Below are positions 606-740 of a stretch of DNA of 64,000 nucleotides, piece by piece. Position 1 is the first letter of the stretch. Every line of letters starts with the position of its first letter. The stretch comes from Octopus vulgaris (taxonomy: Eukaryota): positions 43,834,001 through 43,898,000 of the forward strand of contig OX597831.1 of assembly GCA_951406725.2 (NCBI GenBank), read 5' to 3'. Position numbers and translations under genes: made by a program. Below the pieces are notes generated by a model. That model was not told where the DNA came from, did not search any database, and saw only the letters and a list, made by a program, of their open reading frames with translations.

Positions 606-737
606 GTAAAAAAATACAAACTGGGACAAGAATGCAAAACATTTAGAAGACGATACAAAAAACACGGACGGAACATTCGAAGCCTTCAATCTTCAGTCAA
701 GAACCGGATCATCCTCGCAATTTCAGCTGATTAATCT

Positions 738-740
<3 letters not shown>
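606..740 (-). mobile_element. Truncated copy of the 28866-29290 element, inserted in (TA)n
   Basis: Near-identical to 28866-29000 (offset 28260) and flanked by (TA)n on both sides. Confidence 0.9.

Follow-up and report, generated by a model that had tools for sequence, protein, structure and literature searches.

5' ends of a (TA)n-targeting Penelope-like repeat family in Octopus vulgaris at the predicted cut site of a putative permuted hammerhead ribozyme

R2 and L1Tc elements carry an HDV-like ribozyme at the 5' end of the element. Another group is formed by hammerhead ribozymes with permuted strand orders: according to PMC10085705, types SGC and CSG come from metatranscriptomes and metagenomes only, with no genome of a known organism among their sources bar one GCS candidate, and type CSG has so far been reported only from soil metagenomes. 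Type SGC is described there as having a stem II strand 1–2 bases after CUGAnGA, and this block of the core (block C) is assumed to be uninterruptible. Among Penelope-like elements (PLEs), Naiads are reported in PMC8557442 to prefer (TA)n targets and to lack canonical hammerheads, having only 'core' or 'half-core' motifs, with the second half of a half-core lying 35–50 bases away on either side. Non-LTR retrozymes and other PLE clades (PMC4209133 and bioRxiv 10.64898/2026.07.22.740005) use type I (CGS) hammerheads that are often minimal and dimer-acting and are arranged in tandem arrays; the 2026 pipeline (bioRxiv 10.64898/2026.07.22.740005) employed type I models only. Finally, for a Poseidon PLE, PMC11167929 reports that the hammerhead depended on the element's protein for cleavage, that insertion in vitro could do without cleavage, and that no reads ended at the cleavage site.

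Here we analyse a window of 64,000 nucleotides of the Octopus vulgaris genome that holds copies of a non-coding, (TA)n-targeting Penelope-like family, which numbers thousands of copies genome-wide. Like the Naiads of PMC8557442, this family inserts into (TA)n, is 5'-truncated, forms partial tandems, includes inverted 5' pieces and has a ribozyme-like motif at its 3' end. Naiads code, whereas the viewed copies of the window family have no recognisable ORF, and it is architecture and target that would link the family to Naiads. Like the non-LTR retrozymes of the sources above, it consists of non-autonomous, ribozyme-bearing, apparently PLE-dependent repeats of a few hundred bases, but it is mostly dispersed, 5'-truncated and predicted to adopt a fully stemmed permuted fold. 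In contrast to the SGC and CSG hammerheads, it is represented by thousands of animal genomic repeats, and its predicted block C is split at A9/G10.1, with two extra closing helices. R2 and L1Tc represent another ribozyme and another retroelement class; the ribozyme of the window family lies at the 3' end, where it would act across tandem units or release stubs.

If the reading developed below is right, it adds a hammerhead strand order beyond the six proposed as possible, moves non-circular permutations from unassigned environmental RNA to animal genomes in thousands of copies, and explains the apparent absence of hammerheads in Naiads. It also bears on the role of hammerheads in PLEs, where dispensability in vitro stands against genomic 5' ends that align with the predicted cut site.

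The repeat family and its short copy in the window

The 2.8-Gb octopus genome is (TA)n-rich. A DNA search for the family returned 4290 candidates, the 40 that were scored having 94–100% identity, and the first 20 bases from the predicted cut site were found at 2945 places genome-wide; judged on such matches, about 85 of 100 family copies read through the site. The family unit is pyrimidine-rich and measures ~755–855 bp. Copies have one common 3' end followed by (TA)n, and their 5' ends are varied and often lie on (TA)n too; units are often preceded by a partial copy of their own 3' end (partial tandems), and an inverted 5' piece is present in some copies. The family thereby displays the Naiad-type set of (TA)n target, 5' truncation, partial tandems (pLTR) and inverted 5' pieces. 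These are traits of Penelope-like elements in general (PMC8557442) and are not Naiad-specific, because they are common to other PLE clades, e.g. that of Hydra.

No recognisable ORF was found in the family units viewed, and the same units lack an ORF with an N-terminal GIY-YIG endonuclease, a CxC motif and a reverse transcriptase (RT). Tandem units that each carry a type I hammerhead, as in non-LTR retrozymes, were not seen either, the family having partial tandems only and a permuted fold. In four sets of assembled contigs, which do not register RNA ends, there was neither a return joint of circular RNA nor a peak of starts or ends.

The window holds a longer and a short copy of the family, both on the minus strand, the latter enclosed by (TA)n tracts:

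28861–29290, minus strand: longer copy of the non-coding Penelope-like family, whole ribozyme inside, itself 5'-truncated at ~29290 (sequence comparison)
606–740, minus strand: short copy and predicted 3' cleavage product, with +1 = 740 at the predicted scissile bond and extending to the 3' end of the element (129/135 bases identical to 28866–29000)
741–820, no strand assigned: (TA)n tract that the short copy joins at its 5' end, the insertion target (sequence)
545–605, no strand assigned: (TA)n tract that the short copy joins at its 3' end (sequence)

A first-pass annotation of this DNA had described the short copy as matching 28866–29000 almost perfectly and as starting at the predicted scissile bond next to (TA)n, and both statements hold. 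Identity is 95.6%, and on the minus strand the first upstream mismatch, 741 against 29001, coincides with the predicted C17|N1.1 bond (29001/29000 = 741/740), (TA)n adjoining directly. There is a one-base ambiguity in this junction: the A at 740 may be part of the (TA)n tract. Six substitutions are private to the short copy (at 633, 635, 636, 672, 714 and 725), the one at 725 corresponding to C11.1>U.

5' ends around the predicted cut site

What had been put forward as a single observation turned out to be a recurrent one. The exact TATA|+1 junction was found at 131 places genome-wide, one of which is the short copy itself (listed at C18:43834727-43834744), against 0 for a reversed-pattern control, and these loci are spread over at least 20 contigs. 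Among the first 30 exact-junction loci, 29 are true family copies and one (L049) is not. The site-start copies fall into 15 signature groups, with one locus unparsed, and flank sequence is common to only three pairs upstream and three pairs downstream, so that most of them are independent insertions. As to their extent, 27 of the 29 are stubs of ~125–175 bases, while L046 reaches slightly into the next unit and L033 spans the whole unit to the next 3' end. We discarded the idea of split copies, i.e. a (TA) tract inserted into an intact copy, since an upstream half within 1.5 kb was found for 0 of the 29 site-start copies. A variable-gap pattern, which served as a first look only, gave redundant forward counts and 25 distinct loci.

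We then followed the distribution of 5' breakpoints in truncated copies, as the first-pass annotation had suggested. In a script tally of 100 of them (the first 100 of 689 matches with an AT-only hexamer at -29..-24), 21 start at +1 and 72 in +1..+11, with 10 in -1..-23 and 18 in +12..+39; the ungapped walk misplaces five gapped or variant rows, and by eye the numbers are 23 at +1 and 11 upstream. Breaks far downstream are under-represented in this selection and upstream ones are favoured, which makes the step at +1 a conservative one. Hundreds of family copies start at the predicted cut site or no more than ~10 bases after it, and a band of breakpoints has its sharp 5' boundary at the site, which is not the sole peak. 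The expectation of a feature at this nucleotide was therefore borne out as an edge and not as a maximum, the largest single junction being at +10/+11 with 441 places, a count that also takes in sister subfamilies and some intact copies.

Two kinds of rearrangement were seen alongside. Three copies with an identical +30 junction within 550 bases (G000:C13:76284457-76285010) form a small local tandem amplification. At L248, L268, L290 and L111 the 5' junction is fused to sequence from the 3' part of the element itself, in inverted orientation, and two of these loci join at +2.

Family C, which is sequence-unrelated to the window family, has two copies in the window and at least 1403 genome-wide. 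A descriptor scan brought it to light; on 30 shuffled windows the scan gave 1 hit.

54450–54745, minus strand: family C copy with the core order of the window family, predicted cut 54726/54725, truncated ~20 bases upstream of the cut (descriptor scan)
28150–28500, plus strand: second family C copy; its upstream stem II strand lies at 28203–28207, and its cut site has three extra A (28231–28233) (sequence)

In the first 100 rows of family C, scored by eye, 7 copies start at the site (-2..+1), 14 at +6..+9, 22 at +10..+38 and 2 upstream. Family B is an older and weaker replicate with 159 matches: of 100 rows, 35 are intact and 65 truncated, the latter starting (by eye) at +1 in 4–5 cases, at +3..+10 in 23, at +11..+39 in 21 and upstream in 16. 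For the Naiad-type family described below, ~3 of 100 copies start at the site by eye, the position being blurred by a TA match. Another family with the same core order, a long stem I and a different sequence was noticed at L009, at about +120–240.

A real RNA end at +1 could also arise other than by self-cleavage, from a transcription start, from a protein nuclease, or from a protein or structural block to the RT, with the fold acting mainly as a protein-binding signal. The protein dependence of Poseidon cleavage and its dispensability for insertion in vitro (PMC11167929) speak for such a scenario. So does a second pile-up of 5' ends (+6..+10), which in families A and C sits where the stem I strand ends, is explained by microhomology in part only and hints at a structural effect. 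We nevertheless consider an end of this origin unlikely, since in two families unrelated in sequence the edge coincides with the base that hammerhead geometry predicts. Moreover, a stalling RT would be expected to halt at the 3' foot of helices that are still wound, e.g. at the hairpin at -25, and not at +1.

Alternatively, the AT-rich bases that follow the site resemble (TA)n, and a joining bias could let ordinary 5'-truncated cDNAs anneal there with no RNA cleavage at all. The starts at +6, +8 and +10, nearly all of which are in TATA phase, are what such a bias predicts, and so is the rank of +10/+11 as the largest junction. The data at the cut site itself speak against it. Position +1, with one matching base, has 131 junctions, whereas the matched controls at -2, -11 and +30, with two matching bases each, have 15, 35 and 31. 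Furthermore, among the 21 copies that start at +1, 10 do not keep TATA phase, which means that joining there needs no microhomology, and in family C the bases after the predicted site are GC-rich, yet the same step is seen. Joining bias as the source of the edge is thus quite improbable.

Predicted fold of the ribozyme

The fold that we predict for a self-cleaving RNA is made up of the following parts in the longer copy, residues being numbered by the hammerhead convention:

29064–29077, minus strand: closing helix P0, 5' strand, pairs with 28934–28947 (inverted repeat 87%; MFE fold; 91% of cells paired in 21 copies)
29023–29061, minus strand: hairpin PH, between P0 and stem II (MFE fold; inner 5 bp 92% paired, no two-sided changes)
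29017–29022, minus strand: stem II, 5' strand, with G10.1 at 29022, upstream of the cut, pairs with 28985–28990 (133/150 cells, 0/2000 shuffles; two-sided changes in 3/5 pairs)
29010–29016, minus strand: stem I/II interaction helix, 5' strand, pairs with 28964–28970 (complementarity by reading)
28995–29006, minus strand: cleavage block, with stem III strand, AUC, predicted cut 29001/29000 and stem I strand (stem III 139/150 cells, stem I 179/180 cells)
28977–28990, minus strand: GAAA block, with stem II 3' strand, GAAA (28984–28981) and stem III strand (pairing across copies)
28950–28962, minus strand: CUGAAGA core with a stem I strand (in alignment A1 only position 7 of the core varies, the search pattern having fixed it)
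28934–28947, minus strand: P0, 3' strand, including the GGCU that the first-pass annotation had used as stem II (MFE fold, alignment)

Read 5' to 3', the first half of the predicted order runs P0, hairpin, stem II, I/II interaction, stem III, cut site and stem I strands, and the second half stem II, GAAA, stem III, interaction and stem I strands, CUGAnGA and P0. The bases after CUGAnGA pair with a strand upstream of the hairpin, forming P0. Block C is split because A9 leads into P0 and G10.1 comes only after the hairpin; the two residues would no longer be neighbours in the chain, P0 and the hairpin keeping them together instead. On this model the fold can be described as type CSG circularly permuted by an opening inside the CUGAnGA block, between A9 and G10.1, and the strand order lies outside the six published hammerhead permutations.

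All elements of the hammerhead core (C3-U4-G5-A6-N7-G8-A9, G12-A13-A14, A15.1-U16.1 and H17) are found, as CUGAAGA, GAAA and AUC in the window, and the U16.1-A15.1 pair is present in 30 of 30 copies. Because the search pattern already specified the core and five of the stem I pairs, core conservation is not an independent measure. An Rfam scan of the window gave 0 matches at the gathering score; the stems cross and follow no type I–III order. We dropped a canonical type I reading, since no partner for stem I lies downstream of CUGAAGA.

Covariation was followed in an alignment of 21 of the 47 extracted copies. A model of P0, the hairpin, the upstream stem II and stems III and I is paired in 93.5% of 688 cells with 47 two-sided changes, a result reached by 0 of 500 shuffles, and slid controls gave 24–43%. 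Stems I, II and III all covary, with two-sided changes in 3/5 pairs of stem II, 3/5 of stem III and 1/6 of stem I. Because the aligned copies are related, covariation counts overstate independence, and shuffle counts here and elsewhere are not probabilities. The MFE fold of 28933–29082 contains P0, PH and the upstream stem II (z -2.77), and folding 28915–29025 alone gives a z of 0.25, indicating that the signal needs the upstream part. The I/II interaction helix lies outside the 21-copy model count; in family C it is paired in 28/30 cells, and 222 of 2000 shuffles score as high.

The first-pass annotation had instead drawn an X-Z-Y fold (type SGC), in which the downstream GGCU serves as stem II after a five-base insert downstream of CUGAnGA. 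The descriptor scan does find the order S, G, C, but the downstream partner lies beyond the 1–2 bases after an intact block C that are typical of SGC. Four downstream pairs are possible in the window subfamily, the downstream stem is paired in 73.8% of its cells in alignment A1 (a level reached by 24 of 500 shuffles), and a five-pair, wobble-rich downstream stem is also possible in the Naiad-type family. However, the second of the pairs fails in 13 of 21 copies. We compared the two candidate partners in 30 diverged copies out of 51 parsed, leaving out near-identical main-family copies. The upstream strand, 22 bases before the cut, is paired in 107/120 cells (0/2000 shuffles), whereas the downstream GGCU partner is paired in 80/120, a value that 1720 of 2000 shuffles reach. 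The same preference appears in family C, where the upstream strand forms 24/25 Watson-Crick pairs and the downstream one 11/25 over five copies, too few for covariation. Finally, the bases in question are also needed for P0. It is therefore very unlikely that SGC is the active fold, and we replace it with the split-core arrangement set out above.

Naiad ends and a proposed route of insertion

The last 350–550 bases of 36 of the 54 published Naiad consensus sequences (PMC8557442) were inspected by eye. Six of these ends (Bfor, Amil, Aacu, Anas, Obim and Ovul) have the split form, with the stem register of the window family, and Esco has the split form in part. Seven others, all nematode (Parc, Nbra1-3, Hcon, Hpol and Asuum), have a clean type CSG that includes the I/II interaction helix, and the other 22, bivalves included, have neither form in the stretch inspected. 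Naiad_Obim and Ovul have a weak P0 and would also allow a wobble-rich stem II downstream. A short likeness between the published CSG-1 and a nematode Naiad end was set aside as one of architecture only, not of sequence. In a literature scope that took in few subscription papers, we found no account of permuted hammerheads in Naiads, of a split block C or of PLE 5' ends at a cut site.

The Naiad-type motif taken from the published octopus Naiad consensus has 471 copies in the genome, and its upstream stem II lies at -22, in register with that of the window family. We looked for an autonomous partner of the window family via an RT-like fragment with 109 matches, viewing 30 loci. The Naiad-type motif lies within 1.5 kb downstream of the RT-like fragments at 17 of the 30, and the window family's ribozyme lies within 1.5 kb at 0 of the 30. 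Sequence motifs, together with a position 5' of the published Naiad 3' motif, suggest a PLE origin of the RT-like fragments; four of them were run against Pfam and had no RT match. A rare autonomous partner may exist. Since none of the viewed loci carries the family's ribozyme, we assign the family to Naiad machinery from architecture and target, which make mobilisation by a Naiad likely.

Fragments resembling the GIY-YIG endonucleases of other PLEs share (TA)n tracts with the window family at L076, L077 and L112-L113, and this adjacency looks like shared targeting. Some GIY-YIG-like fragments are followed by CUGAnGA and GAAA words.

Direct observation covers the family, its (TA)n target, the partial tandems, the step of 5' ends at the site and the covarying stems. 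From these we judge it likely that the 135-base piece is the 3' product of a self-cut RNA, reverse-transcribed into the (TA)n tract, probably by a Naiad-type Penelope-like element. Read-through transcripts would carry a 3'-terminal ribozyme that cuts them, leaving a 5'-OH RNA, and the 3' product would retain the signals for reverse transcription. Reverse transcription, primed at nicked (TA)n, would proceed to the cut end, and the cDNA would be joined blunt (+1) or after trimming to the nearest TA-like match (+6, +8, +10). A single copy would in this way yield the stubs of 125–175 bases, and a partial tandem would yield insertions that run from the site through a unit to its 3' end, e.g. L033. 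The first-pass annotation had likewise proposed a reverse-transcribed self-cleaved 3' product; the sharp rise of 5' ends at the predicted cut site favours that proposal, and the fact that the site is not the tallest peak tempers it. Because of the Poseidon data, and because most copies read through the site, cleavage may be one route among several. That the junction of the short copy is a coincidence or an assembly join, as the first-pass annotation had allowed, is extremely improbable: it is known at 606–740 from the assembly alone and adjoins a long (TA)n tract, but neither explanation can account for some 130 loci over many contigs and subfamilies with mostly unrelated flanks, and this copy carries six private substitutions.

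Extending this beyond the window family, we lean towards the view that many Naiads and their non-autonomous passengers carry non-circularly permuted hammerheads, of type CSG in nematodes and with a split core in cephalopods, corals and ctenophores, and that the cut RNA is the template that sets 5' ends in vivo.

Other repeats in the window were noted in passing. Self-comparison gave palindromic MITE-like repeats at 829–1038, 48973–49855, 59203–59658, 61147–61404 and 63019–63347. Two dispersed SINE-like families, each abundant and 400–600 bases long, are also present: the first at 10071–10461, 21165–21716, 39330–39714, 55472–56075 and 60260–60857, and the second, which has internal tandem units, at 11554–12166, 23013–23444, 34667–35236, 35865–36244 and 37844–38620.
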